From the NCBI RefSeq assembly GCF_000735135.1, contig NZ_JPLZ01000002.1:224317-288316 (forward strand): DNA of 64,000 bases, written 5' to 3'. The notes below the pieces were generated by a model, which was given only the letters and a program-made list of their open reading frames with translations, was not told the DNA's origin and did not search any database. This document shows, piece after piece, positions 17,607 through 39,993 of this stretch. A program made the position numbers and the translations under genes. Positions within the stretch are counted from its first letter, which is position 1. Each line of letters opens with the position of its first letter. The DNA comes from Chryseobacterium sp. FH1 (lineage in GTDB: Bacteria > Bacteroidota > Bacteroidia > Flavobacteriales > Weeksellaceae).

Positions 17607-17680
17607 TCCTCTTTAGCTCAGTTGGTTAGAGCATCTGACTGTTAATCAGAGGGTCGCTGGTTCGAGCCCAGCAAGAGGAG
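17607..17680 (+). tRNA. tRNA-Asn (anticodon GTT)
   Basis: Hand-folded cloverleaf: acceptor TCCTCTT/AAGAGGA, D-arm GCTC..GAGC, anticodon stem TCTGA/TCAGA with loop CTGTTAA, T-arm GCTGG TTCGAGC CCAGC, discriminator G; CCA is not encoded; followed by a hairpin/T-run. Confidence 0.85.
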
Positions 17681-17817
17681 CAAAACCATCACAGAAATGT
17701 GGTGGTTTTTGTTTTTATATAATATTAAATCTCACAACTACAATTTTAACATAGATTGGCAAAGAAATTGTGTAGTCCATTATGTACTTAATAACTAACA
17801 ATTTAAAACTGACCACT

Positions 17818-21931: not shown

Positions 21932-22595
21932 AATCATTTTGGTAGAAGACGATGCAGACTTGGGAATGGTTTTGAAACAGTATCTGGAATTCTCAGATTT
22001 CGAGGTCAATTGGATTCCTAATCCCGAACTTATCATTGATAATAAAGAAATCATCCAAGATTATCAATTGGCGATTTTGGACGTGATGCTTCCTTTTATG
22101 GACGGTTTCGAACTGTCAAAAGAAATCAGAAAAACCTCTGATATACCATTCCTGTTTCTAACCGCAAAAGGTCAAAGTATTGATAAAATCTTAGGTTTAA
22201 AACTCGGCGCCGACGATTATATCACAAAACCCTGCGAACCGGAAGAACTGATTCTGCGCATCAAAAACATTCTGAAAAGACAGCGAAATTCAACAAATGA
22301 AATTATTAAAATTGGGCATTATTCCTTCATTCCGTTGCAATTCCAATTAAGATTTGAAACCGAAATTTTTCAATTGACAGAGAAAGAATCGGAGCTTTTG
22401 CTTTTACTTTCAAAGAACAATCACAAAATAATCAACCGAAAAGAAATCCTAGAAAATCTCTGGGGCGAAAATGATTATTTTCTCGGCAGAAGTCTGGATG
22501 TTTTTATGACCAGACTTCGGAAATATCTTCAAAAAGATGAAAGGATCAAGTTCGAATCCGTGCGTGGAATCGGCTTCAAAGTAGAATTTCCTTGA
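21921..22595 (+). CDS. OmpR-family response regulator transcription factor
   Basis: 224 aa; receiver domain (ILVEDD...LDVMLP) and winged-helix C-terminus; overlaps the HK stop by 11 nt, suggesting translational coupling. Confidence 0.85.
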   Translation: MKTKIILVEDDADLGMVLKQYLEFSDFEVNWIPNPELIIDNKEIIQDYQLAILDVMLPFMDGFELSKEIRKTSDIPFLFLTAKGQSIDKILGLKLGADDYITKPCEPEELILRIKNILKRQRNSTNEIIKIGHYSFIPLQFQLRFETEIFQLTEKESELLLLLSKNNHKIINRKEILENLWGENDYFLGRSLDVFMTRLRKYLQKDERIKFESVRGIGFKVEFP

Positions 22596-24912: not shown

Positions 24913-25920
24913 TTACTTTCTCTTCAAAATCTCCCGATTGATTTCACTAATCAACTCCGGACCTTCGTAAATAAACCCTGTGTAAAGCTGAACCAGACTC
25001 GCGCCAGCATCAAGTTTTTCAATCGCATCTTGCGCTGTGTGGATTCCGCCAACGCCGATGATTGGGAATGCTTTTCCACTTTTTTCGGATAAAAATCTAA
25101 TAACTTCTGTCGAACGTTTTGTCAATGGTTTTCCGGAAAGTCCGCCGGTTTCGGTTTTGTTTTCTGAGATTAAATTTTCTCTTGACAAAGTCGTATTCGT
25201 CGCAATCACGCCAGCGATTTGAGTTTCTTTAATGATATCAATAATATCCAAAAGTTGCTCATCTGTCAAATCTGGTGCGATTTTCAGAAGAATTGGCTTT
25301 TGTTTTGGCTTTGCAAGATTGAGGTTTTGAAGCGTTGACAACAATTCTGTCAAAGGTTTTTTGTCCTGAAGTTCGCGGAGATTTGGTGTATTCGGCGAAC
25401 TGACATTCACAACGAAATAATCAACGTACGGAAATAATTTATCGAAACAGATTTTATAATCGTTGACGGCTTCTTCATTTGGCGTCACTTTATTTTTTCC
25501 GATATTTCCGCCGATGAGAACGTTTTTGTTTTTCTTCAATCTTTCGATTGCTTCGTCCACACCGCCATTATTAAAACCCATTCGATTGATGATAGCAGAA
25601 TCTTCCTTCAATCGGAACAATCGTTTTTTATCATTTCCAGCCTGAGCTTTCGGTGTCAAAGTTCCGATTTCTATGAAGCCAAATCCGAGGTCAGAAAGTT
25701 CATTGAAGAGTTTGGCGTCTTTATCAAAACCAGCCGCCAAACCAACCGGATTTTTGAATTTCAATCCGAAAACTTCACGCTCGAGACGTTTGTCAACAAT
25801 TGGTTTTGGTAAAAATAATTTGGCCAGAAAACCGAAATTCTTGAGAGCAGAAAATGTAAAGTGGTGAACTTCTTCTGGGTCGAATTTGAAAAGAAGCGGA
25901 CGAATTAGGCTTTTGTACAT
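24913..25920 (-). CDS. pyrD: Quinone-dependent dihydroorotate dehydrogenase (class 2)
   Basis: 335 aa; N-terminal membrane-association helix, FMN-binding GFDKDA and [11 protein letters not shown] motifs. Confidence 0.9.
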
Positions 25921-25990
25921 CGGAGAAAAGTTTTACAAATCTACAAAATCATAAACGAAAAAAGCCCAATCGCGTGATTAGGCTTTGATT

Positions 25991-28900
25991 TTATTTGTTT
26001 TTGATTGCGTTGATAATGCCCTCAAGATTTTCATTGAATTCTAAAAACTGGGCAAATACTTTGTCGTCTTTTCCGAGTCCGCCGTGCTTGTTGTTCTTTT
26101 TGAAAATCTCTTTGATGTCTTCCCAGCGTTGTTTCTCATCATCGGTCATTAATCCCGCTAATTGTTTCAATTTCAATAGATTGCTTTCCGTGTCCGCGGT
26201 CAAAGTCTGTGACTCGTTTTCGTAATGGGAAAGGATGAGCTGGTCTATTTCCTCGTCATTCATCATCGGAACGACTTGCGTAACCAATTTGCTCATATTC
26301 CTGTAAGAACCTTGCATTTTGAAAGGCGGTTCCGTTCTGTAAGAATCCTGCATCGCCGCAGATTGGATGTAGTTCTGATTGACTTTGATGACCACATTTC
26401 TGATTTTCAAAATATGTCTCAAAACTGAATTAAAATCGTCGATTTCCTGCTTCTGATAATTGCCTTCCAAATCCGGAAGTTGTTCTGCTCCAGATTCTAC
26501 AAAGTTGGTCAAGGCGTAAAAATCTTTGAAGGATTTGCTGGCGATTTTTTCCAGATTCGGATTTTCAATCGACGCATTTTCAATCAAACTTAAATTGAAC
26601 AAATGTTCCGTATCACCGATGACATCACCCAAATTGTACACATCTGCACGGTTTGCAAGCATATCCGGAATTTGGAATTTCGAACCGCTTTCTGTGTACG
26701 GATTTCCCGCCATCACGATGCAAAATCGCTTTCCACGCAAATCGTAGGTTTTACTTTCACCTTGGAAAATCCCGTCAATTTTTCTTTGTCCATCGGCCAA
26801 TGAAATGAATTTCTGCAAAAACTCTGTGTTCAAATGCTGAATATCATCCAGATACAACATCACATTATCCGCCATTTCGAAAGCGAGATTGATTTTTTTC
26901 AATTCTTCTCTTTCGCCGGAAGTTTTGGCTTCAATCGAGTCAATGGAAGTGATGGAATGTCCGATGGTTGGACCATTGACTTTCACAAAATGAAGTCCCA
27001 TTGTTTTGGCAAGATATTCCATCAAGGTTGTTTTTCCGTAACCTGGAGGAGAAATCAAGAGCAACATTCCCATTCTCGCCGTACGTTTGTTGTCTCCAGC
27101 TGTGCCCAATTGCTTTGAAAGATTGTTTCCTATCAATGGAAAATAAACCTCGTTGATTAATTTGTTTCGAACGAATGACGTTAAAACTTTTGGCTCGAAC
27201 TCGTTGATTTTAAGTTCCTTTTCGTAATTTTTGCTGAGCTGTTCTTTTAGTTTTAAGAAAGATGCGAAACGAGGAACTTTAACAGTTTCAAAAAAATGTA
27301 ACTTATGAATGAAAGCATAATAGTCAAGTTTTAAATTTCCGTTTTCCAGCGTGGGATGATTCCCTTTCAAGTCTGTGATTTCTGCTTCATCTTTTCCAAA
27401 AATCAGTTGATATTCGTCCTTTGGGAAGAGTAAAGAAGTGGCTGTCTCTTCTGTGTATTTTCGGTAAATTTCCAGATTTTCGTTTTCATCGATGAAGGAA
27501 TTGAGCCAATTCAAAACGAGATAGAAACGGTCTGTCAAAGAAAATTGCTCATTCTCCAAATCATTTCTGAAATCTGTCAAAGCTTTTTTCGATTCCAAAA
27601 GGCGAACAAATTCCTGATTAAAATGGTCGGAAGATTCGCTAATCGCAAACTTTCCGAATTTTGTCAACGTTTCAAAAAGATATTTTGCAACAATTCGCGA
27701 ATCCACGTTCGTCAAATCCAATGTCGTTTGCCAAGCTAAAAACTCAGTCGATACTTCATTAATGACAGATTCGAATCTGGTCGAATTTGGGAAAGTCTTC
27801 AAAACGGCATTTGTGGAATTCATCAACGCTTGCAATTTTGTTCGTCGCTCCTCTGGAAGATGATGCCAAAACAGTTGCGAAGTGGCTCTCAAATGCGAAT
27901 CGTAGCGCAAAAGGTCTAACTTTTCGTCCATCGCTTTCAATGCATTGTAGATTTGCAACGCATCAAAATTGTGAACGCCTTTCACATAATTCTCAGAATA
28001 ATTCTGCTCAATGGTTTGGTTGATGAACTGCTCTGCGTCGAAATCTTTAGAATTCTTGGAAGCCAGAAATGTTTTGTAAGCCAAATATTCGCTTCGATAA
28101 ACTTCTCCATTTTCCGAAATCAGCTCCTGCTCCCAAATATCCTTGAACGCTGTAATCTCATCATTATTGACTTTCTGATAAAAACTGGTTCCCGTCAAAT
28201 GATAAAACAACTCGCCGTTTCGGTTCAGCAAAGTGAGGCTTAATGATTGATTATTGACCGAAAATTTATGTTTTCCGAGTGCAATAATATTTTCGCCGTC
28301 AACGTACAATTCGGTTTTATCTCTCAGAATTCTCAATGCATCTTCCTGAGATTTTTTGATTAAGTTTTCGAGGTTTTCTGCCTTCGAAACATCATCCAAA
28401 GTCTTAAGCTCGGAAACCAACTGACGGATTTTGTCAATCATTAAATCTGAAGCGTAGAAACTCAGGATTTCTTCCCTCGTAGCAAAGGTTTTGGATTTGT
28501 TCTCGATGTTTTTGAGAACGCGAAGTCCAATCTGCTCCAAAGAAGAAGTTCGCTTGTTGACTTGCTCGACGATTTGCTCTCTTCTGGTGTTGAAAGCCTT
28601 GATGACCTCATCTCTTTTATCTGCAATCTTCAGCGCAAAATCATCAAACTCAGAAAACTTGCTTTCCAATTCTTCGAGCTGAACCACAATCTTGGTGTAA
28701 TATTCATCCACTTTTTCTGTAGATGTGGAAAGTTCCATATAATTGGCAACGGATTGTTCCAAAAGCGTCATCTGCGCTGTAAACGAGGCAACGGCTTCGG
28801 TACTTCTCAGCGACGTCAATTTTCTGGAAAGCGATGCCCGAATTTCATTCAACGAAGAAAAAATAACAGCAATCTTCTCAATGATTTTCGTGGTTTGTGT

Positions 28901-30832
28901 GGCGTCCTCGATTTTCAGGCTGTTGAGAATATCAATCAAAAGTTCCAGTTCGCCGGAGATTTCGTCGTTGATGGTTTCTACTTCTTTTGCATCAAAAACT
29001 TTGGTGATTTCCAGAACTTTCTGCTTCTGAAGTTCCACTTTTTGCTCATAAGGTAAAAGCGCTTCCTCTCGCAAAAGAAAGGCGATGGTTTTGTCCGACA
29101 AATCGGTGTTGATTTCGCCTAATTTTTCAAGAAGCGCGTCAACTCCGGAAATATCAATGTAGCGCACATTTTTCAAATCAATCACTTCGCCCTGCAATTT
29201 TCTGGCATCGGCAAGCTGATGAACCATTTGGTCCAAAGTTTCGACCGTGGTGCTATTGATTTTGAAAATTAATTCTTCTAATTTCTTATCGGTAACAGAC
29301 AGAATTTCTTCCGCGTGTTTCCGCTGGGTCTGGACTTTTACAAATTCATCAATCGCTGTGTTGGCAATTTCTTTGATCTGTTTCAAAGGTTCACCTAAAT
29401 TTTTAAGTGAAGCATCTTTGATCCAAAAATAAGAATCCAAAAGCGTGTTCGATCTGCGAAGAATATCCTCGTACAAACCTTCATACGAATCTTCTTTATT
29501 GATCAACTGAATCACCTCCTGCGCTTCCGCCATTGCCTGAACAATCTGCTTGTTCCCCACTTTGTAGAGCGGGTCGTTTTTCTTTTCAAGATTTTCCTTC
29601 AGAACAGCCATATACGGCGTTTCCCAAATCTGAACCTGATGATGTCGCGTTGCTTCGGCCTCGGTTCGGAAATAGATCATATTCCCATCATTGAAAACCG
29701 TAAAACCATTGCAGATAATCGGTGTTTCTACGGATTGCTGAATGATGTTGTACGACATCAGAATGTAGGTATTGCTCTCCGGCTGAGTAAAGATGTAAAG
29801 AAAATCTTCCCCATTTGGCGATGCAATTTTGCGCAGGAACTGGACGTTTTCCAGATGCGCATCGAAAATCTTGTGAACGCCATTTTGCAAATAATAGCCA
29901 TTCGAAAAAATGATGCCTTGATTGTCCGGAAGCAGAATCGCCGATTCCTTCAGCGAAGGTAAATTGATGACTTCCTTTGTTCTGACATTGAAAACGTAAG
30001 TCCGAAAATCCTCCTGATATGGCTTGATTCTAATGGCAATCAGATTTCCGAGGTCTGCGTAATAGTAATCTGCATCGTCCAATTGCTGATCAAGATTGGT
30101 CACTTTTTCAGAGTAGATTCCTTTGCCAGAATCTGTGTTGTCCTCGATTTTAAAAGTGATATCGCCCCCCATCGCTTCGATAAAAACCTTGTCCAGAATA
30201 GAAACGTGCGGGAATTTGCCCAAACGTCTGTCCTCCAACGTCGTTTTTTTCCATTCAAATTCCAGTTGAGCCGGCGGTTTTACCTCGTGGATGCTTCTAT
30301 CGTCCTGATAAATCAGTTTTCCATCTTTGATGAGCCATTTGAATGCTTTTAAGTCATCCGTATTTTTGCTGATCTGGAAAATCATATAGAGATAATTCTC
30401 CGTTCTTCTGAACTTGGAGAAAATAGAATCGCGGTAATATTTGTAAAGATTCTGATAATCATTAATGAAATTGGCATCAGAGATCACATCCAAAGACTGA
30501 GGGATAAATTGCTCTCCATCAAACTGATAGATACTGAAAACATCTTCCAGACGAATCTCTGTCCGAAGTCCAAAATGAACATTGTACCCGAAGATGCAAA
30601 TGCGGTCGATCGCGATAATTCCTCTCGCTACGCAAGTGTTTTCTGTGTCAATTCTTTGGTTGGCCTTTAGAACAAAATTGGTAGAACTAAAGACTTCTTT
30701 TCTTGAAACATTCAGTTCCTGCAAACGTGAGATCAGATCATCTTTCTGCGTCTGCAAACGCTTTCGGATGATTTCGTACGCACCGGAATCCAACTGAATA
30801 TTTTGATTTTTTGTTTCTTCCATTATAAACAA
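25991..30832 (-). CDS. Giant (1613 aa) protein of unknown function with one AAA+ ATPase module of the AAA_5/MoxR-like clade
   Basis: A single uninterrupted ORF; Walker A LLLISPPGYGKTTL near residue 1215, Walker B MLYLDD, sensor-like CIVMAGNPYTESG...IPDMLANRADV; about 1200 aa of unassigned N-terminal sequence rich in predicted helices and coiled coil. Confidence 0.6.
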   Translation of the reverse strand: MFIMEETKNQNIQLDSGAYEIIRKRLQTQKDDLISRLQELNVSRKEVFSSTNFVLKANQRIDTENTCVARGIIAIDRICIFGYNVHFGLRTEIRLEDVFSIYQFDGEQFIPQSLDVISDANFINDYQNLYKYYRDSIFSKFRRTENYLYMIFQISKNTDDLKAFKWLIKDGKLIYQDDRSIHEVKPPAQLEFEWKKTTLEDRRLGKFPHVSILDKVFIEAMGGDITFKIEDNTDSGKGIYSEKVTNLDQQLDDADYYYADLGNLIAIRIKPYQEDFRTYVFNVRTKEVINLPSLKESAILLPDNQGIIFSNGYYLQNGVHKIFDAHLENVQFLRKIASPNGEDFLYIFTQPESNTYILMSYNIIQQSVETPIICNGFTVFNDGNMIYFRTEAEATRHHQVQIWETPYMAVLKENLEKKNDPLYKVGNKQIVQAMAEAQEVIQLINKEDSYEGLYEDILRRSNTLLDSYFWIKDASLKNLGEPLKQIKEIANTAIDEFVKVQTQRKHAEEILSVTDKKLEELIFKINSTTVETLDQMVHQLADARKLQGEVIDLKNVRYIDISGVDALLEKLGEINTDLSDKTIAFLLREEALLPYEQKVELQKQKVLEITKVFDAKEVETINDEISGELELLIDILNSLKIEDATQTTKIIEKIAVIFSSLNEIRASLSRKLTSLRSTEAVASFTAQMTLLEQSVANYMELSTSTEKVDEYYTKIVVQLEELESKFSEFDDFALKIADKRDEVIKAFNTRREQIVEQVNKRTSSLEQIGLRVLKNIENKSKTFATREEILSFYASDLMIDKIRQLVSELKTLDDVSKAENLENLIKKSQEDALRILRDKTELYVDGENIIALGKHKFSVNNQSLSLTLLNRNGELFYHLTGTSFYQKVNNDEITAFKDIWEQELISENGEVYRSEYLAYKTFLASKNSKDFDAEQFINQTIEQNYSENYVKGVHNFDALQIYNALKAMDEKLDLLRYDSHLRATSQLFWHHLPEERRTKLQALMNSTNAVLKTFPNSTRFESVINEVSTEFLAWQTTLDLTNVDSRIVAKYLFETLTKFGKFAISESSDHFNQEFVRLLESKKALTDFRNDLENEQFSLTDRFYLVLNWLNSFIDENENLEIYRKYTEETATSLLFPKDEYQLIFGKDEAEITDLKGNHPTLENGNLKLDYYAFIHKLHFFETVKVPRFASFLKLKEQLSKNYEKELKINEFEPKVLTSFVRNKLINEVYFPLIGNNLSKQLGTAGDNKRTARMGMLLLISPPGYGKTTLMEYLAKTMGLHFVKVNGPTIGHSITSIDSIEAKTSGEREELKKINLAFEMADNVMLYLDDIQHLNTEFLQKFISLADGQRKIDGIFQGESKTYDLRGKRFCIVMAGNPYTESGSKFQIPDMLANRADVYNLGDVIGDTEHLFNLSLIENASIENPNLEKIASKSFKDFYALTNFVESGAEQLPDLEGNYQKQEIDDFNSVLRHILKIRNVVIKVNQNYIQSAAMQDSYRTEPPFKMQGSYRNMSKLVTQVVPMMNDEEIDQLILSHYENESQTLTADTESNLLKLKQLAGLMTDDEKQRWEDIKEIFKKNNKHGGLGKDDKVFAQFLEFNENLEGIINAIKNK

Positions 30833-30943
30833 TTTTGAGAATTGTTCTTTGAATTTTTGTCGAAGTTTAATTTGACAGTCGTGCAGTTTCTGTGCGCTTT
30901 ACCGATTGAAAAGCACACAGATATTTGCACTGGCTTAATATGG

Positions 30944-33058
30944 TTATCCTAATTTTCTATTGGAAATCCCAAGGTTTTTTGCCATTCCGAAAAGGGAATT
31001 GATAAAATTGGTATCCTCCGTATTTTCAGCTGATGAGGAGGCTTGTTGAAGTTTGATCAACGCTGCAGAAACTGTCAGGTTTTTGATGTCGTTGGATGAG
31101 ATTCCATATCTTTCTGCAAGATTTCTGACTTTTTCTGCCAAGTCACCTTTTCCGTCTGGTCCCATCAAAGAACTTTTGATGTCCAAAGCGTGTTGTGAAT
31201 TGTTGATCAAGTGGTCAAAACCTTTGGAGTTGGAAACTTGTCGCACGATATTCTCAAAGAACATTGTCTCACCACCAACGATGTCTATCTTCGCAGTTTT
31301 CAAAGCTTCAGAAAGCACTTCAGCCTGTGCAGATGCGATATCTTTTTGGATGTTGATTTGAGCCAATTCCACGTCTTTTTCTTTCTGCAACTGTAGCTTG
31401 AACTCCTCGTGAGATTGTCCCGCTTCGTTAAGTTTTTTCATCGCGTCAGCTTTTCCTTCGATGCCTTTTGCCTCTGCTAATGCTTTTTCACGAACAACCT
31501 CAGCCTGAGCCAAACCTTCCTTGCGAACAGCTTCAGCTTTTTTCTCGATCACAGATGCTTCTTTTTCACCCTGAACTTCCTGAGCTTCTGCCTTGGCAAT
31601 CATTACTTCTGCTTCTGATAATCCAATTGCCGCTTCTTCTTTAGCTTGTGCTTCCGCGATGATTTTTCTTGCTTCTGCTTCTTTCGTCGCCGCTTCTTTT
31701 TTCGCCTCGGCATCAATGATTAATTCTTGAGCCTTTCTTTCTGCAACACTTTTCTGTGCATCGGCATCAATGATTTTCTTTTCCTTTTCCTGCTCGGCGG
31801 CAATTCTTGAAGCTTCTGCCGCTTTCACCGTTGCAACCAATCTTTCTTCTGCCTCCTGACTTGCAGCGATAACGCCAGCTTGTTTCTTGCGTTCTGCATC
31901 GCGGTAGATTTCTACATCTTTCACGTTTTGTTGCTCTTCTACCACGCCCTTTTCCAATTGTACGCGTTCTTTAATGACATTTTGGATGGATTTTTTCTCC
32001 GTTTCGATGGTTCTTTCCTTTTCGATCTGAGCCAGCGTCACGATTCTTTCTCTTTCGGTTTGCTCCAATGCGCGGTCTTTTTCAACTCTTTCGGTTTCTA
32101 CGGCATCTGTACGCAATTTGTTTTTTTCTGCGATGATGATTTGGCGAAGTTTATTTTCTTCCTGCACTGCAAGCGTTTCCTCGGTTTGGATCCTCACGGT
32201 TTCGGATTTCAAACGCTCTTCTTCGTTCACTTTCAGAATCTCGGCATTTTCTCTGGCTTTGATATTTTCGATTTCACGTTTTTGACGTTCTTCTTTTTCT
32301 GCCAATTGTCTTTCCAGTTCCAAAATCGCCTCGCGCGCCTCCACGTTTTGTTTTTTGATGGTCTTTTCTTCTGCTCTGCGGATGAGATTGGCGTTCATAT
32401 TTTGCTGTGCGGTCAATTCTGTGATCTTTCTGATCCCCTCAGAGTCCAAGATATTCTCTGCACTTAGGAAACGCAATTCTGTCTGTTCAAGATAATCAAT
32501 GGCGCAATCATCTAAGATATAACCATTTAAATCTGTTCCGATGATATTCAGAATCTCATCTCGGAATTCTCTTCTGGCTTCATACAATTCAATAAAATCG
32601 AATTTTTTTCCTACTGTTTTCAAAGCTTCAGAAAACTTAGCCTCGAAAATACTTTTCAAAGTTTCTGGGTCAGAGGCTCTTTCGCAACCCAAGTTCTGTG
32701 CAACGCTGATGACATCATCCACAGATTTGTTCACTCGCACGAAAAAAGCCACTTTGATGTCTGCACGGATATTGTCTTTACAGATCAATCCGTCGTTTTC
32801 CATACGGGCAATGTCAATTTTCTTAACGGAGATGTCCATTATTTCCATCTTATGGAAAATCGGAACCACGTACATCCCTTTGTTGAAGGCAACATTGGTT
32901 CCACCAACTCCGGTTCGGACAATGGCTTTTCCTTGCGGAATTTTTTTATAGAATGAACTTAATACTACCAAAAAGGCAATAAAAAGGAAGACGATTATTC
33001 CAACGATGAGTAGCATAATATTGCTCCCACCAATCGCTAAAATGGTCATTTGAGTCAT
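30944..33058 (-). CDS. Flotillin-family (SPFH/band 7) protein
   Basis: 704 aa; N-terminal TM segment, SPFH domain, then a very long Ala/Glu-rich coiled coil (AEAQAKEEAAIGLSEAEV...), characteristic of YqiK/FloT-type flotillins. Confidence 0.85.
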   Translation of the reverse strand: MTQMTILAIGGSNIMLLIVGIIVFLFIAFLVVLSSFYKKIPQGKAIVRTGVGGTNVAFNKGMYVVPIFHKMEIMDISVKKIDIARMENDGLICKDNIRADIKVAFFVRVNKSVDDVISVAQNLGCERASDPETLKSIFEAKFSEALKTVGKKFDFIELYEARREFRDEILNIIGTDLNGYILDDCAIDYLEQTELRFLSAENILDSEGIRKITELTAQQNMNANLIRRAEEKTIKKQNVEAREAILELERQLAEKEERQKREIENIKARENAEILKVNEEERLKSETVRIQTEETLAVQEENKLRQIIIAEKNKLRTDAVETERVEKDRALEQTERERIVTLAQIEKERTIETEKKSIQNVIKERVQLEKGVVEEQQNVKDVEIYRDAERKKQAGVIAASQEAEERLVATVKAAEASRIAAEQEKEKKIIDADAQKSVAERKAQELIIDAEAKKEAATKEAEARKIIAEAQAKEEAAIGLSEAEVMIAKAEAQEVQGEKEASVIEKKAEAVRKEGLAQAEVVREKALAEAKGIEGKADAMKKLNEAGQSHEEFKLQLQKEKDVELAQINIQKDIASAQAEVLSEALKTAKIDIVGGETMFFENIVRQVSNSKGFDHLINNSQHALDIKSSLMGPDGKGDLAEKVRNLAERYGISSNDIKNLTVSAALIKLQQASSSAENTEDTNFINSLFGMAKNLGISNRKLG

Positions 33059-33061
33059 AGT

Positions 33062-33739
33062 TTATTGATTTTTAATGTTATGAATGTTAATTTCTTTTTT
33101 TACTAGATATATTCTTTTGTCCTTAGTTTCATCGATGATGATAACGTCGTCATTATAACCAATAGATGCTCCATCGATGCTTTTTACATTAAGCCGAATC
33201 ACATCTTTGTTGATGACAAATTCTGCAGAACCAATCTTCTCACCTGCAAGACTGGATTTCATAATTCCCGTTCTTCCCAAATAATCGTGTGGTTCTTCGC
33301 CTTTGTAGCCGATGCTTTCGTAGAATTTCGCAATCGGTTTTGTGAGCCAGTGCATAATGAAGTAGGTCACGAGAAATATGGGAATCAAAATCAGCAAAGA
33401 CCAAAACCCGAATTGTCCAATTGAAATAAACAACGATGAGACAATCGTGATAATCCAACCGATGAATTTAAATAAGGTGACAATCACCATCAACGGTGCT
33501 TTCCCGATATTGATGAAATCCAAAGCCTTGGAAAAAAATCCTGGCTGGTCGTGATGCACGTCGCCGTCCACATCATTCACATCACCGATTCCCTCAGCGT
33601 CCAGATCCGCATCCATCCCGAAATCCAAGCCGTCTCCGGAGAAAAGCACGAAAACCCAGTACAGCAATGAAACACCTGTAAGTACGGTCATTACGCCATT
33701 TGGAAGCGGATGAAACAATAGATTAAAGAGTTCTGTCAT
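33062..33739 (-). CDS. NfeD-like membrane protein
   Basis: 225 aa; N-terminal TM helices and a C-terminal beta-rich soluble segment; ends 3 nt before the flotillin start, the canonical NfeD-flotillin gene pair. Confidence 0.55.
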   Translation of the reverse strand: MTELFNLLFHPLPNGVMTVLTGVSLLYWVFVLFSGDGLDFGMDADLDAEGIGDVNDVDGDVHHDQPGFFSKALDFINIGKAPLMVIVTLFKFIGWIITIVSSLFISIGQFGFWSLLILIPIFLVTYFIMHWLTKPIAKFYESIGYKGEEPHDYLGRTGIMKSSLAGEKIGSAEFVINKDVIRLNVKSIDGASIGYNDDVIIIDETKDKRIYLVKKEINIHNIKNQ

Positions 33740-33768
33740 AGTTTTATTTTTGTGATTTCAATGATACC

Positions 33769-33963
33769 TTAAATCTCTCTCTTGAACGTGTAATGGAATC
33801 CGTAAGCCGTTCCGCTCATATCCCGGCTGGCAACCGAAACCAGTTCCCAGCCGTCCATTCCATACTTGTTAAGCACCTTGTCAATTTCTTCGATGTCGAA
33901 TTTCCAAGACCAAGTTCCCTTTGGTTTGATCTCTATCGTTTTGTATTCAAATCTTTTTTTCAT
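33769..33963 (-). CDS. Small DUF4177-like protein
   Basis: 64 aa; MKKRFEYKTIEI...GWELVSV pattern resembles DUF4177; family assignment is from memory, not a search. Confidence 0.4.
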   Translation of the reverse strand: MKKRFEYKTIEIKPKGTWSWKFDIEEIDKVLNKYGMDGWELVSVASRDMSGTAYGFHYTFKREI

Positions 33964-33981
33964 TATTTATAGTTTTTGTTG

Positions 33982-34674
33982 TTAAATTCCGAGTTGCCTT
34001 TTCAAATCTTCCAGATCTTTGTCCACAGAATTGGTTCCGAGCGCTTCATCTATTTCATCTGTCACGGTTTTGTTTCCCGTAGCCATAGAACCATAAGCCT
34101 GTGACAAAGCTTCGTCCTCTTCCACTTTTTCCTTCATTCTCTCCAACATACTGATGGTGGAATTTGAATCGATCTTCGCCATTTGTCGGTTCACTTCTTT
34201 GGTCGCGTTGGAAACTTTCACTCTCGCTTTCAAAGTCGAAAGTTCATTTTCCCATTTGTTGATGTTAAATTTAAGAACATCAATATTCTTTTGCAACTCA
34301 TTGACAGATTTATCATGAACCTCAGCTTGTTTTGTTAATTCCTCAGATTCAGAGACCAATTGTTTTTTTAGCATCAAAGCCTCTTTCGCCAGAGCTTCCG
34401 CTTTTTCAGTTTCCAACTCGCTGGATTGTGCTTTTTGCAACAATAGAATTGCTTTTTGCTCAAACTCTTTTGCTTCTTCGCCTTTTTTATCCGCATTGTT
34501 TTTGGTGCGGATCGCCAAGGCTTTCACTTTTGCATAAGCTTCCAGAGATTGATCAAGATCATCTCGCATTTCGCGGATTCCTTGTTCCGTCATTTTGATC
34601 GGGTCTTCCATCTTTTCGACTACGGAATGAATCTCCGCTTGTCCTATTCTAAAAATTTTTTTAAAAATATTCAT
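33982..34674 (-). CDS. pspA: PspA/IM30 family protein (ESCRT-III-like)
   Basis: 230 aa; all coiled coil; N-terminus MNIFKKIFRIGQAEIHSVVEKMEDPIKMTEQGIREM matches the PspA/Vipp1 N-terminal helix. Confidence 0.8.
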   Translation of the reverse strand: MNIFKKIFRIGQAEIHSVVEKMEDPIKMTEQGIREMRDDLDQSLEAYAKVKALAIRTKNNADKKGEEAKEFEQKAILLLQKAQSSELETEKAEALAKEALMLKKQLVSESEELTKQAEVHDKSVNELQKNIDVLKFNINKWENELSTLKARVKVSNATKEVNRQMAKIDSNSTISMLERMKEKVEEDEALSQAYGSMATGNKTVTDEIDEALGTNSVDKDLEDLKRQLGI

Positions 34675-34685
34675 TGTATTTGGTT

Positions 34686-35075
34686 TTAAAGTTTTGAAAA
34701 TTGAATCAGTTGCTCGTAATATTCACTTATTAGGAGACTCAATGAATTGATGGCTGCCTCGAACTCATTGAAATCCAAATTGTGAATCTGCAAGGTATAT
34801 CGGAAAATCACTTTTCTACCATCTTCCGTGATTGCAAATGCACCGTGGATCATGTCTCTGTTCTTCATCAGCAGGGATTTGAACATTTCCATCGAATCTG
34901 TCGTAATCGTAAAAAGATACTGCTCAAAAATGATGACCGGCGGTGCGATGCCCACAATCAGATTATGGATGCCATCCAAAGAATTTTCTATGACGAAAAC
35001 TCCCGATTCTTCAGACTTGTGCACTATTTTGTAGTCAAGATTACGAATATATTGCTCTACAGTTTTAAAGTCCAT
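34686..35075 (-). CDS. YbjN-like (putative sensory-transduction regulator, T3SS-chaperone-like) domain protein
   Basis: 129 aa; size and alpha/beta pattern resemble YbjN; tentative. Confidence 0.4.
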   Translation of the reverse strand: MDFKTVEQYIRNLDYKIVHKSEESGVFVIENSLDGIHNLIVGIAPPVIIFEQYLFTITTDSMEMFKSLLMKNRDMIHGAFAITEDGRKVIFRYTLQIHNLDFNEFEAAINSLSLLISEYYEQLIQFSKL

Positions 35076-35100
35076 TGTTAGTTACTTTTATAGTTTTTGT

Positions 35101-35117
35101 TTGTATGTTTGATACAA
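35101..35117. promoter_or_regulatory. Inverted repeat TTGTAT-N5-ATACAA in the divergent promoter region (putative operator)
   Basis: Read directly; sits in the 95-bp gap between the divergently transcribed YbjN-like/PspA operon and the XRE regulator gene. Confidence 0.3.
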
Positions 35118-35170
35118 ATATAATACATTTGCTAAAATAATTAGCAACTTTTTATAAATATTTTTGCAAA

Positions 35171-35830
35171 ATGAGCCAAATTGGACATAACATCAAGAAA
35201 CTCAGAAAGGTCAAAGGCTTTAGCCAACAGGCTTTTGCGGAACTTTTTGAACTTTCGAGAGGAAATATTTCTTCTTATGAGGAGTTAAGAGCCGAACCAA
35301 AGATTGACGTTGTGACAAAAATTGCCAATTATTTTAGCATTCCGCTTGACCACTTGTTGAACAATCAACTTTCCGTCAATGAAATATTAAACTTCAACGA
35401 CCATTTTGAAACTAAAGAACAGGAAATTATTTCAGATTTCAAGACCATTCCCTTCATCGACCGCAATCATATTTCTCAGATTTTGGATTTCCACGACAGT
35501 CTGGAATCATTAGCAAAAATCCAATTTCCGATTTACAGCCCGAAAGATTTTCTTGCCCTGGAGTTGGATGAATCTGTGAATCACCATTCCGATTTTCAGT
35601 TTCGTGAAACAGATATCGCCTTCTTCAAAAAACTTGAAGTGGATTTGCTTCATACGTTGGACAATCAATACGGTTTATTTTTCAGCAAGGCATCTTTTTT
35701 CATTGGGCAATTCCGAGTGAAGGAAAAGCAGATTTTCCTCGTTTTGAATGACTGGCACGAAGAGGAATTTTCAATAGATGACATCGATAATTTCTGGAAA
35801 TATTACGGCAAATTTGAGAAGTCTGTTTAA
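35171..35830 (+). CDS. XRE-family HTH transcriptional regulator with an uncharacterised C-terminal domain
   Basis: 219 aa; N-terminal Cro/C1-type HTH (IKKLRKVKGFSQQAFAELFELSRGNISSYE); about 150 aa of unassigned C-terminus. Confidence 0.7.
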   Translation: MSQIGHNIKKLRKVKGFSQQAFAELFELSRGNISSYEELRAEPKIDVVTKIANYFSIPLDHLLNNQLSVNEILNFNDHFETKEQEIISDFKTIPFIDRNHISQILDFHDSLESLAKIQFPIYSPKDFLALELDESVNHHSDFQFRETDIAFFKKLEVDLLHTLDNQYGLFFSKASFFIGQFRVKEKQIFLVLNDWHEEEFSIDDIDNFWKYYGKFEKSV

Positions 35831-35938: not shown

Positions 35939-37594
35939 ATGATTCCAAAGTGTTTTCGTAGAAATTTAGTTCTTATAATATTTCTGCTTTTGTTGCCTTT
36001 TCAGATTTTCGCCATCGACCAAAAAGATTGCGAGAAAATGATCATTGAAGGTGTGGAAGCGATGAACAAAAAGGATTACGCCAAATCTCTTCAAATCCTT
36101 ACCAAAACCCGAAAAATAGCTCAGGAAAACAAATGGTACCGAGAGGAATTCCTGGCTACGAACAACATCGGCGCGAATTATTATATGCGATTGGACTACG
36201 GCGAAGCACTCAACAATTATCTTGATGCCTACAAAATTGCCGTTGCCCATTTGGATGAAAAATCGGAAATGACGGTTCTCAACAACATTGCGATTCTCTA
36301 TTCCCGAGACAAAAAACAGGACAAAGCGGAAGATTATTTTTTGAAAGCTTACGAACTCGCAGGAAAGGTTAACAATAACATTTCCAAAGGATTATACGCC
36401 ATCAATCTTACCATCGTTTCCAATGAAAAGAAAGATTACAAAACGGCGAAGAAATATATTGATGAAGCATTGAAACTCACGTCAGACTCACCGTATTATC
36501 TTTTGGCGAGATCTACATACGTCGAAACGCTTGTGAATCTGAAGCAATTTGATGAAGCTGAGAAGATATCCACCGAACTTTTGCCCAAGCTAAACGGCGT
36601 AGAACATTCGGAATATAAAACCCAAATTTTCTACAATCTCTCTACCATTGCGGAACAGAAAAATGATTTGCAGAAATCTTTTCATTATTTGAAATTGGCG
36701 GAAGCAAGCAATCTGAATTACGATTTCAAGGAAAACATCTTCGAGAAGTTCAGCCAATTGTACAAAAAAGAGAACAACATTGAGCGTGCTGTTTCTTACA
36801 AAGATTCCATTATGGTCATCAAAGATTCTGTGAACAAAATCAAGAATGGACAGCTTTTCGAAAATAGCAAGATTAAATTTGAACTTCAAAATTCACAGAA
36901 GAATTTGGCGGAAAGTCAGGAGAAATTGACAACCGAACGTTCATTTTTCATCAAAGGAATTTTGCTCGCCATCTTTGTATTTGTGATTGTTTTCTGGGCG
37001 TTGCGAAACAGCATCGTTAAAAACAAACAGCAGAAGATCATCGAACAAAGCAATGCTGAGATTGCAAAACTGGAACTTGAAAAAGAGAAAAAGAATAAGG
37101 AAATCCTTGAAAATCAATTAAAAGAAAAAGAAGTCCTGGCATTGTTGGAAGAAGAAAAATACAAGAATGAGATCGAAGCCAAGAACAGGAAACTCACAAC
37201 CAAAGCGCTCCAACTCACCACAAAAATTGAATTGATAGACGACCTCGTGAGAACGCTTTCTAGACAAACAGATGATTTTGAGAATCAGGACGTCAGTAAC
37301 ATCATCAAGCAACTTAAGATTTTCCAGAGACAAAGCAGAGAAGAGGAAAGTTTTTTCATCCATTTCGAAGAGGTGAATCAAGGTTTTATTTCGAAAATTA
37401 AAACGCTCCATCCAGATCTTAATTCTAATGACATTCGGTTTCTTTCCTATGTTTATATGAACTTGTCGATGAAGGAGATTTCTTCGCTGTTGAGCATCAC
37501 AACAGAGGCTTGCAGGAAGCGAAAAGAGCGGATCATCAAGAAAATGGAGCAAGATGATAACCTTGACCTATATAACTATATTACAAGCATTTAG
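35939..37594 (+). CDS. TPR-repeat membrane-anchored regulator with a C-terminal LuxR/GerE-like HTH
   Basis: 551 aa; signal/TM, several TPR-like repeats, a TM helix (GILLAIFVFVIVFWAL), a coiled coil, then the C-terminal MKEISSLLSITTEACRKRKERIIKKM. Confidence 0.55.
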   Translation: MIPKCFRRNLVLIIFLLLLPFQIFAIDQKDCEKMIIEGVEAMNKKDYAKSLQILTKTRKIAQENKWYREEFLATNNIGANYYMRLDYGEALNNYLDAYKIAVAHLDEKSEMTVLNNIAILYSRDKKQDKAEDYFLKAYELAGKVNNNISKGLYAINLTIVSNEKKDYKTAKKYIDEALKLTSDSPYYLLARSTYVETLVNLKQFDEAEKISTELLPKLNGVEHSEYKTQIFYNLSTIAEQKNDLQKSFHYLKLAEASNLNYDFKENIFEKFSQLYKKENNIERAVSYKDSIMVIKDSVNKIKNGQLFENSKIKFELQNSQKNLAESQEKLTTERSFFIKGILLAIFVFVIVFWALRNSIVKNKQQKIIEQSNAEIAKLELEKEKKNKEILENQLKEKEVLALLEEEKYKNEIEAKNRKLTTKALQLTTKIELIDDLVRTLSRQTDDFENQDVSNIIKQLKIFQRQSREEESFFIHFEEVNQGFISKIKTLHPDLNSNDIRFLSYVYMNLSMKEISSLLSITTEACRKRKERIIKKMEQDDNLDLYNYITSI

Positions 37595-37695
37595 CAAATT
37601 TGTCACACTATTTCTGATTGCTCGTCCTACTATTTCCGCCCTTAATTTTTGAATTGCTAATTTTTATCACAACATTTGAGTATAAAATTAGATAT

Positions 37696-39993
37696 ATGAG
37701 AAAATTTACTGTTTTAGCTGGCCTTTTGTTTGCGCTTTTTGCAACGAATGCCAATGCCCAGACTGACGTTTTGGGAAAAAATGAGTTCGGAAGAATCTTC
37801 GACCTTACTTACAGCGTACAAGAACAAAACACGATCTACGCCATCACGCTTTCGAGTCACATTGTGGTTTCCAAAGACAACGGAAACACTTGGGAGGTTT
37901 TCTATTCTCTTCCAGAAATTGGCGGAGGCGTAAGTATTTCAAAATTGAATATCAGCAAGGACGGAAGTTTCCTCTCATTTACTACCGTGCAATATGGTGT
38001 TGGCGTTTTGCATATTTTGGATATCCCAACCAAAACCATTACGAAGACTTACACCTTACCAAATTCATCTGAAATCCCTTACGTTAGCGCCTACAACTTC
38101 TTCGAAAGCGACAAAGACAATTTGATCATCAGTTCTCAATTTCCTTATGGTTGGGGAACTGCTAACCGCGTTTACACAACCACAGATGGCGGTGCAAATT
38201 GGAAAGAAATCTACTTCTCCGCAGAGGATAACAACAATATCATCACGAGTTACGTGGCATTTGCACCAACCGACAAAAACAAAATCTACCTTGCCAACGG
38301 AAACGGAAGCGAAGGCGTTTCGGGAGGATTGATGATTTCTAATGACGCTGGAGACACTTTCACAGAAAAATTGTCTGGAAGCGTTTTGAGCACTTTGGAA
38401 TTCAATCCAAAAGATCCCAACGAAATCTATGTTGGAACGGGAATCAGCTTCGGAATGGCACCTGAGAAAGTTCATCATTCTAAAGACGGAGGTGAAACTT
38501 GGGAAGATAAAAACATTACGTTCGGAACCAATGGAATACTGAACGACATCATCGCCATCAAATTCAATCCGTACGATACAAAGCACGTGATCGTTTTGGA
38601 GGAAGACGAGATCATCTCGACAAAAGATGGCGGAAATACTTGGCAAAATGTAGAATATCCGTACGACAACTTGGACAGCTACTACTACGGAATCAAGGCG
38701 AGTTTCAATCCTTACAAAGAGGGAGAATTATTCATTACGGCGAATTACAAACCTTTGTTTTCTTCGGATAATGGAGAGACTTTGACGCAAATCCAAACAC
38801 CATTTTACAGTTCCACAGGCCGTGTGAATTTCTTCGAGAATGAAACTTCAAAACATTTATATTACAATGTTCAAGGTGGTTTTGTCCACAGAAATCTTGC
38901 AGACAATTCCGAAACACCTCACAACATCGTACCGCTTAATATCTTTAGTAACAGCGGTGGAACAGCATATCTTGCAGATTCTAAAAAAGAAGGCCGTGTT
39001 TATTCTTTCGAAGGTGGATTTATGGGAGCTACGTTATCGGTAAGTGATGATTTTGGCGCCAATTTCAAATCAATTCTAGAAACTTTTTCTGCTGGCTTAA
39101 CGAATGTGATTCCAGATCCTCAAGTTACCAATCAAGTGTTTACAACTTTTAACAATTGGGATCAAGGCGAGTTGAACAAGGTCAATTTCAATGATGAAAA
39201 TAATATCGTTGTTACCAATATTCCTTTGCCTACGCAGAATCCGGTTTTCAAATTATTACATCAAAATAATATTTCGAATGAATTCTTGATCTTGATTGGA
39301 TCCGAAGTTTACTCGACAAACAATGGCGGAGAGACTTGGACGCCGGTTACGATCGGAAACGAGATCACGCCGGAAACTGCCATTTTTGACATCACTCAAG
39401 ATCCTAACAATACCAATCGTTTGGCGATAGGAACTTCGGTGGGCGTTTTCACCTCTCTTGACAAAGGATTGACTTGGACCAAAGTTTCAGATTTTTTCGC
39501 AAACCAAGTCGCTTATTCTGATGTGAATACAGGTATTTTGATTGCAACGACCTATACGAGTCAAGATGATATTTTCAACATCCATTATTCTGTGAACAAT
39601 GGTGAAATTTGGGAAACAGTTGACAGAGACGAAACTTTGCAAGCGGAATCCAATTCTATCACGATAGATTTCTCCGACAAGAATGCCTACATCTACATTG
39701 CAAGTTTTGACATTGGTCTTTTGGGCTACAATTTGAATCTTGATGTTCTTTCAAATAATGAAGTTCCGGCTGAAAAAGCAAAAGTTTTGGTGTATCCAAA
39801 CCCCGTGGTTGACGTTGTGAAAATTGACAGCAAGAACCTGAAATCGGCATCGCTGTACGATATGAATGGCAAAAAACTATTGGAAAGCAACAAAACCGAG
39901 ATCAACGTTTCTCAGCTTCCAAAAGGTGTTTATGTTCTTAGAATCGTGACTTCTGACAACAATGTGGTGAGCAAGAAAATCATCAAAAAGTAA
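37696..39993 (+). CDS. BNR/Asp-box repeat protein with a T9SS C-terminal sorting domain
   Basis: Start MRKFTVLAGLLFALFATNANAQ; at least nine Asp-box motifs (SKDNGNTW, TTDGGANW, SKDGGETW, TNNGGETW...); C-terminal VLVYPNPVVD...VYVLRIV Por-secretion tail. Confidence 0.7.
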   Translation: MRKFTVLAGLLFALFATNANAQTDVLGKNEFGRIFDLTYSVQEQNTIYAITLSSHIVVSKDNGNTWEVFYSLPEIGGGVSISKLNISKDGSFLSFTTVQYGVGVLHILDIPTKTITKTYTLPNSSEIPYVSAYNFFESDKDNLIISSQFPYGWGTANRVYTTTDGGANWKEIYFSAEDNNNIITSYVAFAPTDKNKIYLANGNGSEGVSGGLMISNDAGDTFTEKLSGSVLSTLEFNPKDPNEIYVGTGISFGMAPEKVHHSKDGGETWEDKNITFGTNGILNDIIAIKFNPYDTKHVIVLEEDEIISTKDGGNTWQNVEYPYDNLDSYYYGIKASFNPYKEGELFITANYKPLFSSDNGETLTQIQTPFYSSTGRVNFFENETSKHLYYNVQGGFVHRNLADNSETPHNIVPLNIFSNSGGTAYLADSKKEGRVYSFEGGFMGATLSVSDDFGANFKSILETFSAGLTNVIPDPQVTNQVFTTFNNWDQGELNKVNFNDENNIVVTNIPLPTQNPVFKLLHQNNISNEFLILIGSEVYSTNNGGETWTPVTIGNEITPETAIFDITQDPNNTNRLAIGTSVGVFTSLDKGLTWTKVSDFFANQVAYSDVNTGILIATTYTSQDDIFNIHYSVNNGEIWETVDRDETLQAESNSITIDFSDKNAYIYIASFDIGLLGYNLNLDVLSNNEVPAEKAKVLVYPNPVVDVVKIDSKNLKSASLYDMNGKKLLESNKTEINVSQLPKGVYVLRIVTSDNNVVSKKIIKK

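Follow-up and report, generated by a model that had tools for sequence, protein, structure and literature searches.

Flotillin rather than PspA is the constant genetic partner of a giant AAA+ ATPase encoded in a Chryseobacterium operon

Introduction

Which partner does a giant AAA+ ATPase serve when its gene shares an operon with genes for a flotillin and for PspA, a member of the ESCRT-III superfamily? This question is raised by a locus of Chryseobacterium sp. FH1 at positions 25991–35830 of a 64-kb stretch of DNA (the window, to which all coordinates refer unless a locus is named). In the window's list of open reading frames (ORFs), six genes follow one another on the minus strand with gaps of 11, 18, 29, 3 and 111 nt. 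They encode, in order, a CesT/Tir-like protein, PspA, a small DUF4177 protein, a YqiJ-like membrane protein, a flotillin and the ATPase, and a gene for an XRE-type regulator opposes them on the plus strand across 95 nt. An earlier interpretation made from the letters alone (the sequence-only reading) had described six tightly packed co-directional genes with a divergent XRE gene, and all seven ORFs are present as described. The same gene order is found again in dozens of genomes, so the arrangement is not a matter of chance. The locus is a member of an operon class known from comparative genomics, in which Ravi et al. (mSystems 2024; bioRxiv 2020; PMC11237479) combined CesT/Tir-PspA, YqiJ/YuaF, Band-7/flotillin and beta-propeller/coiled-coil AAA+ proteins, and it carries the DUF4177 gene as a lineage-specific insert. 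Gene context points to the following answer: the invariant partner of the giant ATPase is the flotillin/YqiJ pair, not PspA, and the XRE-CesT-PspA set is an add-on of Bacteroidota only, among the phyla sampled.

Gene context across phyla

The family of the giant protein is large, with 833 clusters (50% identity) at E ≤ 1e-3 when residues 1–700 are used as the query, and its full-length members are typically 1600–2000 aa. Gene context was surveyed in 80 loci with 10-kb flanks, starting from an alignment of 36 diverse members, and the ORFs of these loci were searched with iterated profiles of the window's proteins. The loci come from Bacteroidota, Planctomycetota, Verrucomicrobiota, Desulfobacterota and Bacillota; they were taken by score from the top of at least 585 matches, which over-represents relatives of the query. 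Counts are limited to loci with enough upstream flank (at least 3.2 kb for the triad of YqiJ-like, flotillin and ATPase genes). In 61 of 64 loci, and in all five phyla, the giant gene is directly preceded on its own strand by a YqiJ-like gene and a flotillin gene. A pspA gene lies upstream in 32 of 63 loci, all of them in Bacteroidota (32/40), and in none of the 23 loci from the other four phyla. The full divergent XRE-CesT-PspA set is distributed in the same way (31/40 Bacteroidota loci, 0/23 others). Thus, the earlier expectation that the giant ATPase would be enriched beside both pspA and flotillin is borne out for flotillin and fails for pspA outside Bacteroidota; homologues of the giant protein are not scattered in unrelated contexts.

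Distant members of the family tell the same story. Flotillin is encoded directly upstream in all four members that share only 25%–27% identity with the window protein and come from DNA of 31%–75% guanine-plus-cytosine (GC) content, and the three whose flank is long enough also have the YqiJ-like gene. L084 and L085, two of the four, have a 4-nt overlap between the flotillin gene and the ATPase gene. In two distant loci the identity of the flotillin to the profile is still 40%–46% where the ATPase is down to 25%. The strict linkage of three genes, together with occasional translational coupling, argues for a direct partnership between the ATPase and flotillin. All-against-all clustering of the ORFs in the 80 loci revealed no further conserved neighbour gene. 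The ORF clusters with high counts proved to be shadow ORFs within the flotillin and giant genes. Genes that stand between flotillin and ATPase in some loci were rejected as components because they differ from locus to locus (DMP19-like, DUF559, unknown).

Several loci depart from the usual layout and are described here for their own sake. A DMP19-like gene (L034, 8621–9247) and a DUF559/Vsr-like gene (L059, 9269–9898) lie between the flotillin and ATPase genes, and a Uma2 gene lies upstream of an orphan ATPase gene in L063 (5909–6505). In a Dysgonomonas locus (L009, 9202–11465) and a Rubripirellula metagenome-assembled genome (L067, 9837–12488), the ATPase frame is interrupted or displaced by 2.2–2.7 kb of extra ORFs, which may reflect an insertion or a pseudogene. 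Two loci have no upstream CesT-PspA pair, yet a pspA gene follows the ATPase gene at a distance of 1–6 kb. In L042 (16012–16758) it is on the opposite strand, in L086 (17780–18532) on the same one. This hints at repeated, independent recruitment of PspA.

The flotillin and its membrane partner

Is the 704-aa protein (30944–33058, minus strand) really a flotillin? It has no Pfam match even at E ≤ 10, Band_7 and Flot included, and none in NCBIfam or among PDB sequences; precomputed Pfam annotation is empty for 120 of 120 close homologues. With a profile built from its homologues, the only match is to the QmcA coiled coil. After these direct profile scans had proved empty or marginal, the yqiJ-yqiK locus of E. 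coli was brought in as a reference. BLASTP aligns the protein to E. coli YqiK over 446 aa (residues 12–450, 30% identity, E 7e-48), an alignment that runs from the membrane anchor through the SPFH domain and into the coiled coil, of which it covers the first half. Given this match, the silence of Band_7 and Flot is read as a gap in profile sensitivity, not as counter-evidence to homology. The protein is 100% identical to the “flotillin family protein” of Chryseobacterium sp. FH1 and ~50% identical to sampled orthologues from other phyla. Its layout comprises an N-terminal transmembrane (TM) segment, the SPFH domain, a long Ala/Glu coiled coil and a conserved C-terminal region; a hydropathy scan places the single hydrophobic segment at about residues 3–41. 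The earlier identification of a flotillin with a long Ala/Glu coiled coil thus holds.

The gene 3 nt upstream (33062–33739, minus strand) encodes a 225-aa protein with no Pfam match at E ≤ 0.01 (YqiJ_N appears at E 0.034). A 19-sequence profile aligns to E. coli YqiJ by hhalign with 96.3% probability (E 1.8e-9, 185 columns) and weakly to 2K14, the structure of the soluble domain of YuaF (E 0.012). About three TM segments, an acidic loop and a C-terminal beta domain complete the picture of a short NfeD protein of the YqiJ/YuaF type, and the “NfeD-like membrane protein” of the sequence-only reading is the same assignment. Based on the YqiK and YqiJ matches, the two proteins are, at the level of sequence, a flotillin module of the YqiJ/YqiK type (SPFH2/NfeD2 in the classification of Hinderhofer et al. 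2009, PMC2636767).

The giant ATPase

The last gene (25991–30832, minus strand) was called from a TTG codon at 30832, giving 1613 aa. An ATG lies three codons downstream at 30823, and it is probably the true start since database homologues are 1610 aa; the gap to the flotillin gene then grows from 111 to 120 nt. Pfam recognizes DUF3686 (E 6e-164), DUF7902 and AAA/AAA_5, with AAA_5 above its cutoff. The protein was modelled as two halves from a 42-sequence alignment, with a mean pLDDT of 87.6 for each. The predicted structure begins with a helix (residues 16–48), followed by the DUF3686 beta-propeller (~54–404), helical bundles that include DUF7902 (421–700), a coiled coil or long helices (~680–840), small beta and helical domains (~850–1210), one AAA+ core (~1225–1400) and a C-terminal helical lid that runs to residue 1613. 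There is no TM segment by hydropathy. Walker A (GPPGYGKT, 1262–1268), a Walker B DD pair (D1329, D1330), Asn1377 and Arg1395 are invariant in the 36 members, which are 27%–60% identical to the window protein.

To which clade does the AAA+ core belong? Ranked by E-value, Foldseek places RuvB and MCM first (~1e-4); ranked by target-normalised TM-score, the best matches are NorQ (0.58–0.63) and CbbQ (0.54). Foldseek of the C-terminal half against the PDB gave AAA+ matches only, and none for the middle region. Judging from the model and from AAA_5, the giant protein is a MoxR-clade AAA+ ATPase, in agreement with the single AAA_5/MoxR-clade ATPase proposed earlier. The MoxR family (CbbQ, NorQ, RavA) and the related AAA modules of dynein and midasin are the best structural matches of its AAA+ module. 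There are clear differences, however. MoxR proteins are ~30 kDa, work with a VWA-domain partner and have a Walker B of the DE type, whereas the giant protein is 1610 aa long, 1200 aa of it an N-terminal extension, and has DD and no VWA gene nearby. A VWA/MIDAS-domain gene is missing both among the window's neighbours, which have no VWA match, and among conserved neighbours in the 80 loci.

The PspA module and the DUF4177 insert

The first gene of the operon (34686–35075, minus strand) encodes a 129-aa chaperone-like protein that matches CesT_Tir_1 at E 1.8e-48. It had been called YbjN-like, which holds at the level of the clan, since CesT/Tir is a YbjN-clan family; the YbjN profile itself is a weak second match (E 0.0018). 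In related loci the CesT-like gene is invariably paired with a pspA gene. Here that gene (33982–34674, minus strand) encodes a protein of 230 aa that belongs to PspA/IM30 by its profile match: PspA_IM30 (PF04012, E 1.1e-43) matches residues 2–227 with 149.8 bits against a gathering cutoff of 33.9. It is YjfJ-like, with 26% identity to E. coli YjfJ over the full length (E 3e-7). The next gene (33769–33963, minus strand) encodes a 64-aa protein that is DUF4177-like, as proposed (E 7.7e-14). A DUF4177 gene occupies this position in 8 of 63 loci, all from Sphingobacterium, Empedobacter, Algoriella and Epilithonimonas, the window's own clade, and is therefore a lineage-specific insert between pspA and the yqiJ-like gene. 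Neither PspA nor the DUF4177 protein has a TM segment by hydropathy, and the same is true of the XRE protein.

Regulation of the operon

The regulator gene (35171–35830, plus strand) encodes a 219-aa protein with matches to HTH_19 (E 2e-10) and HTH_3 (E 1.5e-9). A strongly conserved N-terminal helix-turn-helix (HTH) domain of ~75 aa is followed by a divergent C-terminal domain of ~145 aa, and the profile of the protein matches PezA, CylR2 and other XRE HTH structures. The gene is divergent from CesT-PspA in 31 related loci, so the divergent XRE-HTH regulator of the sequence-only reading is a recurrent feature in Bacteroidota. The C-terminal half has no Pfam or PDB sequence match, and a 16-sequence alignment has no conserved Ser or Lys column. 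In Dokdonia, the counterpart of this regulator was labelled “cHTH+Protease” (PMC11237479). It is possible that the C-terminal domain is a catalytically dead S24-like sensor or a dimerisation domain, because no Ser/Lys pair is conserved.

A perfect palindrome, TTGCTAA-N5-TTAGCAA (35129–35147, on neither strand in particular), lies between the two divergent promoters and is the sole perfect copy in the 64-kb window. Related loci have the same signal. Of 31 XRE-CesT intergenic regions, 13 contain CTAA-N5-TTAG, where 0.17 would be expected (maximum of 3 in 300 shuffles), and the half-site TTGC[TA]AA is present in 71 copies in 26 of the 31 regions, against 2.2 expected. Sphingobacterium loci have a related palindrome, TGCAAAA-N3-TTTTGCA. 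The XRE protein, presumably a repressor, probably binds the conserved palindrome, which would overlap both promoters. The sequence-only reading had proposed a different operator, a TTGTAT-type inverted repeat. That repeat exists (TTTGTAT-N5-ATACAAA, 35100–35118, likewise assigned to neither strand) and overlaps a Bacteroidetes-type −7 box of the operon promoter, TATATTTG (minus strand, 35115–35122). It is conserved neither in the closest loci (L003, L004) nor elsewhere; the conserved site has the same geometry and another sequence. A copy of the candidate operator with two mismatches, TTGCCAATTATTTTAGCAT, lies within the XRE coding region (35322–35340), ~190 nt from the perfect site, and is compatible with chance in a shuffle test.

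The gap between the flotillin and ATPase genes contains an RNA hairpin (30881–30930, minus strand). The minimum free energy of the 118-nt gap is −30.5 kcal/mol (z −5.0), and none of 200 shuffled sequences was as stable. The hairpin has no U-tract. Long hairpins of unrelated sequence recur in the same gap of related loci, with z ≤ −2.3 in 24 of 43. We infer an attenuator or an mRNA-stabilising element that would keep the scaffold proteins in excess over the ATPase. A terminator-like hairpin with an 11-bp stem and a T-run (25961–25986, minus strand), directly 3′ of the giant gene, closes the operon. No Rfam family matches the window between 24.5 and 37 kb.

A proposed two-module machine

How might these proteins work together? 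We favour, with modest confidence, a flotillin/YqiJ/giant-ATPase machine to which Bacteroidota have added a PspA module, in one operon under one repressor. The first module would be ancient and widespread, and consists of the YqiJ/YuaF-type NfeD protein, the YqiK-type flotillin and the ~180-kDa soluble ATPase. At the inner membrane, the flotillin presumably assembles into a large SPFH/coiled-coil scaffold on the cytoplasmic side, and the single MoxR-clade AAA+ module presumably hexamerises. The N-terminal beta-propeller and spectrin-like helical arms of the ATPase may dock on the flotillin/YqiJ scaffold, and ATP turnover could then assemble, open or recycle the scaffold or remodel a client held there. 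The second module, found only in Bacteroidota, would consist of the CesT/Tir-like chaperone and the YjfJ-like PspA, with the divergent gene for a CI-like XRE repressor. Because operon and repressor are shared in Bacteroidota, induction, presumably by envelope stress, would produce the ESCRT-III-like membrane-sealing polymer together with the flotillin platform. The CesT/Tir-like chaperone may hold PspA unpolymerised until it is needed, and the hairpin after the flotillin gene would probably lower expression of the ATPase relative to the scaffold proteins. Topology fits this proposal: the ATPase has no TM segment, and the flotillin has one at its N terminus with the rest presumably cytoplasmic.

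Five observations weigh against the proposal. First, Bacteroidota are over-represented in the survey, which took the 80 top-scoring loci out of at least 585. Second, the proteobacterial and archaeal variants reported by Ravi et al. lie outside the sample. Third, three loci (L051, L063 and L068) have no adjacent flotillin gene despite adequate flank, and have unrelated genes upstream instead. Fourth, the searchable literature yielded no experimental study of DUF3686, or of a “DNA repair ATPase” together with flotillin or PspA. Fifth, the Walker B motif departs from the canonical hhhhDE, with the DD pair in all 36 members; the protein may therefore hydrolyse ATP slowly or serve as a nucleotide-dependent switch.

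A bolder form of the proposal is possible, and we regard it as doubtful: the DUF3686 protein would be the first dedicated ATP-driven remodeller of a bacterial flotillin (SPFH) scaffold. In this form, a ~1-MDa MoxR-clade hexamer would sit on cytoplasmic YqiK/YqiJ through its propeller and spectrin-like arms and open, disassemble or recycle the scaffold, and in Bacteroidota it would be wired to PspA as one inducible SPFH and ESCRT-III-like repair unit.

Alternative explanations

Could the ATPase work at the flotillin scaffold without acting on it? The giant protein could be a maturation chaperone in the style of MoxR, with the flotillin microdomain as the workplace where it would insert, activate or extract an unlinked membrane-protein client. 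CbbQ activates Rubisco and NorQ activates nitric-oxide reductase. These closest structural relatives are MoxR ATPases in complex with a partner, and the NorQ entries are NorQ-NorD VWA complexes. FloA/NfeD of S. aureus is reported to stabilise unfolded proteins, as a paper cited in PMC13086221 also states, and this would suit such a workplace. However, neither a VWA/MIDAS partner nor a candidate client gene is conserved in the neighbourhood, and the strict triad, occasionally coupled in translation, points to flotillin itself as the direct partner. We therefore consider a chaperone for an unlinked client unlikely.

Could the ATPase act mainly on PspA? It would then be an analogue of Vps4 that handles the PspA polymer, with flotillin/NfeD as a mere membrane platform. 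The sequence-only reading drew this analogy, and Ravi et al. compared PspA-AAA+ pairs in general with Snf7-Vps4 (PMC11237479). PspA and the ATPase do share one operon in the window and in most Bacteroidota loci, and pspA is also found 2–6 kb from the ATPase gene in the other arrangements of L042 and L086. The analogy is weakened because the constant partner is flotillin and because the AAA+ clade differs. PspA is missing from 8 of the 40 Bacteroidota loci and was not found within 10 kb in any of the 23 others, whereas flotillin is nearly always there. Vps4-type disassemblases combine a classic-clade AAA+ module, a MIT domain and obligate linkage to ESCRT-III; the giant ATPase has an AAA+ module of another clade and generic helical-bundle matches with no specific match to a MIT-like domain, and its linkage to PspA is facultative. 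A Vps4 analogue is thus quite improbable, and we return to the flotillin-centred proposal.

The distribution of the module raises the possibility of an anti-phage or conflict system, an envelope-based abortive-infection or exclusion device under a CI-like repressor; the sequence-only reading had called an anti-phage role in the envelope conceivable. The module is patchy within the genus. The window copy groups with those of Epilithonimonas, Sphingobacterium and Empedobacter/Algoriella at ~71%–85% identity, and copies in three other Chryseobacterium species are only 46% identical to it, which suggests transfer within Bacteroidota. In Epilithonimonas (L006, 18470–21403), adjoining TPR and pyrD genes follow the module at a distance of ~3.6 kb; in the window, the XRE gene and operon lie exactly between the TPR and pyrD genes (24913–25920 and 35939–37594), so the edges of the module mark a rearrangement breakpoint. 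In addition, the XRE protein resembles controllers of phages and defence systems at the level of its HTH, and small nuclease-like genes (DUF559, Uma2) are inserted in or near some loci. However, searches of nine proteins against PADLOC-DB v2 gave marginal P-loop and coiled-coil matches (E 1e-4 to 3e-3) and otherwise only generic HTH matches. The neighbours are housekeeping genes, with no sign of a defence island; the neighbour-joining tree of the giant proteins is largely phylum-coherent; the operon proteins are unusually well conserved for defence genes; and the GC content of the operon (0.40) is within the spread of other genes (0.379 ± 0.037), with no compositional sign of recent transfer. 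We see very little prospect of a defence role.

It is extremely improbable that the giant protein is a DNA-repair ATPase and a chance neighbour of membrane genes, as the Pfam title of DUF3686 (“ATPase involved in DNA repair”) and the NCBI name (“DNA repair ATPase”) would have it. The similarity to the RuvB P-loop is weak (RuvB_N of Pfam at E 6e-5, NCBIfam at E 5e-5, Foldseek at E 4e-5 and a target-normalised TM-score of 0.34–0.37), is limited to the AAA+ core and is structurally inferior to the resemblance to NorQ and CbbQ. Searches of the protein detected neither a nuclease or helicase nor a DNA-binding domain, the surroundings of the module include no conserved gene of DNA metabolism, and nearly all loci link the ATPase to flotillin. 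The literature searched contains no mention of DUF3686 and no paper behind the label. The name probably derives from the RuvB-like P-loop. It stands on thousands of database entries and probably should change, because neither gene context, nor detectable domains, nor the searchable literature supports it.

Genomic surroundings

The genes around the module encode PyrD, a glycosyltransferase, the TPR protein, a type IX secretion system (T9SS) glycosidase, a two-component system, an outer-membrane barrel protein and an extracytoplasmic function (ECF) sigma factor. The 791-aa glycosidase-like protein (37618–39993), encoded beside the TPR gene, has a C-terminal T9SS sorting domain, which agrees with an origin in Bacteroidota. 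The two-component pair, a histidine kinase and an OmpR-type response regulator, is at 20630–22595, and a tRNA-Asn(GTT) gene is at 17607–17681. At 40865–41936, the gene for the ECF sigma factor (Sigma70_r2/r4) overlaps a 196-aa ORF with no Pfam match, possibly that of its anti-sigma factor.

Comparison with known systems

How much of this is new? Comparison of genes, domains and structure models places the window operon in the class of Ravi et al., whose six components and their order are those of the window, down to a divergent cHTH(+protease-like) regulator gene. Their example is Dokdonia donghaensis ANH61663.1, and their supplementary context table includes the divergent cHTH regulator; their text mentions none of DUF4177, DUF3686 and XRE (PMC11237479). 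They proposed a role of the class in sub-membrane assembly and dynamics, and found abbreviated operons without PspA to be more widely distributed, in agreement with the present survey, in which the triad is more widespread than the full operon. What sets the window's lineage apart from the class is its additional DUF4177 gene, inserted after pspA and before the yqiJ-like gene. The earlier statement that the system has not been characterised is thus correct as regards experimental studies, of which we found none, and incorrect in that the operon type had been described. New here are the operator, the intercistronic hairpin, the structural placement of the ATPase in the MoxR clade, its DD Walker B, the frequency of the triad (61/64) and the restriction of PspA to Bacteroidota among the phyla sampled. 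The value of the window itself is confirmatory, with the operator, the hairpin, the DUF4177 insert and the structural clade added to the known class.

Several systems resemble parts of this operon. In ESCRT-III/Vps4 systems (Snf7-Vps4, CdvB-CdvC) and in bacterial PspA-AAA+ pairs, a protein of the ESCRT-III superfamily is co-encoded with an AAA+ ATPase, as it is here; the window differs from ESCRT-III/Vps4 in the AAA+ clade, in having no recognised MIT domain and in the facultative nature of the PspA linkage. In the B. subtilis pspA-ydjGHI locus, PspA is coupled to the SPFH protein YdjI, through which it appears to be recruited to the membrane, and in E. coli yjfI-yjfJ a YjfJ-type PspA is coupled to YjfI of the CesT/Tir superfamily. 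Neither locus encodes an AAA+ ATPase, and YjfI belongs to a different CesT/Tir family, with no BLASTP similarity to the window protein. E. coli yqiJ-yqiK and B. subtilis yuaF-floT have the same order of NfeD followed by flotillin. Unlike the window, the E. coli pair has no giant ATPase, PspA or XRE neighbour, and the window flotillin is 150 aa longer than E. coli YqiK and undetected by Pfam Band_7. YqiK itself has no known stress phenotype (PMC2636767).

What are the implications of a giant AAA+ gene that is genetically locked to flotillin in at least five phyla? The module is relevant to the opening or turnover of SPFH/flotillin scaffolds. It also bears on how bacterial PspA polymers are controlled in the absence of an AAA+ partner such as PspF, a question stated by Ravi et al. 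(PMC11237479). It is compact, self-contained and very well conserved, and the lock between flotillin and ATPase across phyla therefore offers a concrete case in which to test for an ATP-dependent machine that handles flotillin. FtsH, for example, is enclosed in a cage of HflK/C. The interaction of SPFH3 and SPFH4 proteins with FtsH (PMC2636767) is a precedent for pairing an SPFH scaffold with an AAA+ protein, and HflK/C-FtsH and prohibitin with the m-AAA protease both pair a scaffold with an AAA+ machine, as proposed here. In those systems the partners are membrane-anchored proteases and the scaffolds face the periplasm or the intermembrane space, whereas the window ATPase is soluble and has no protease domain, and its flotillin is presumably cytoplasmic.

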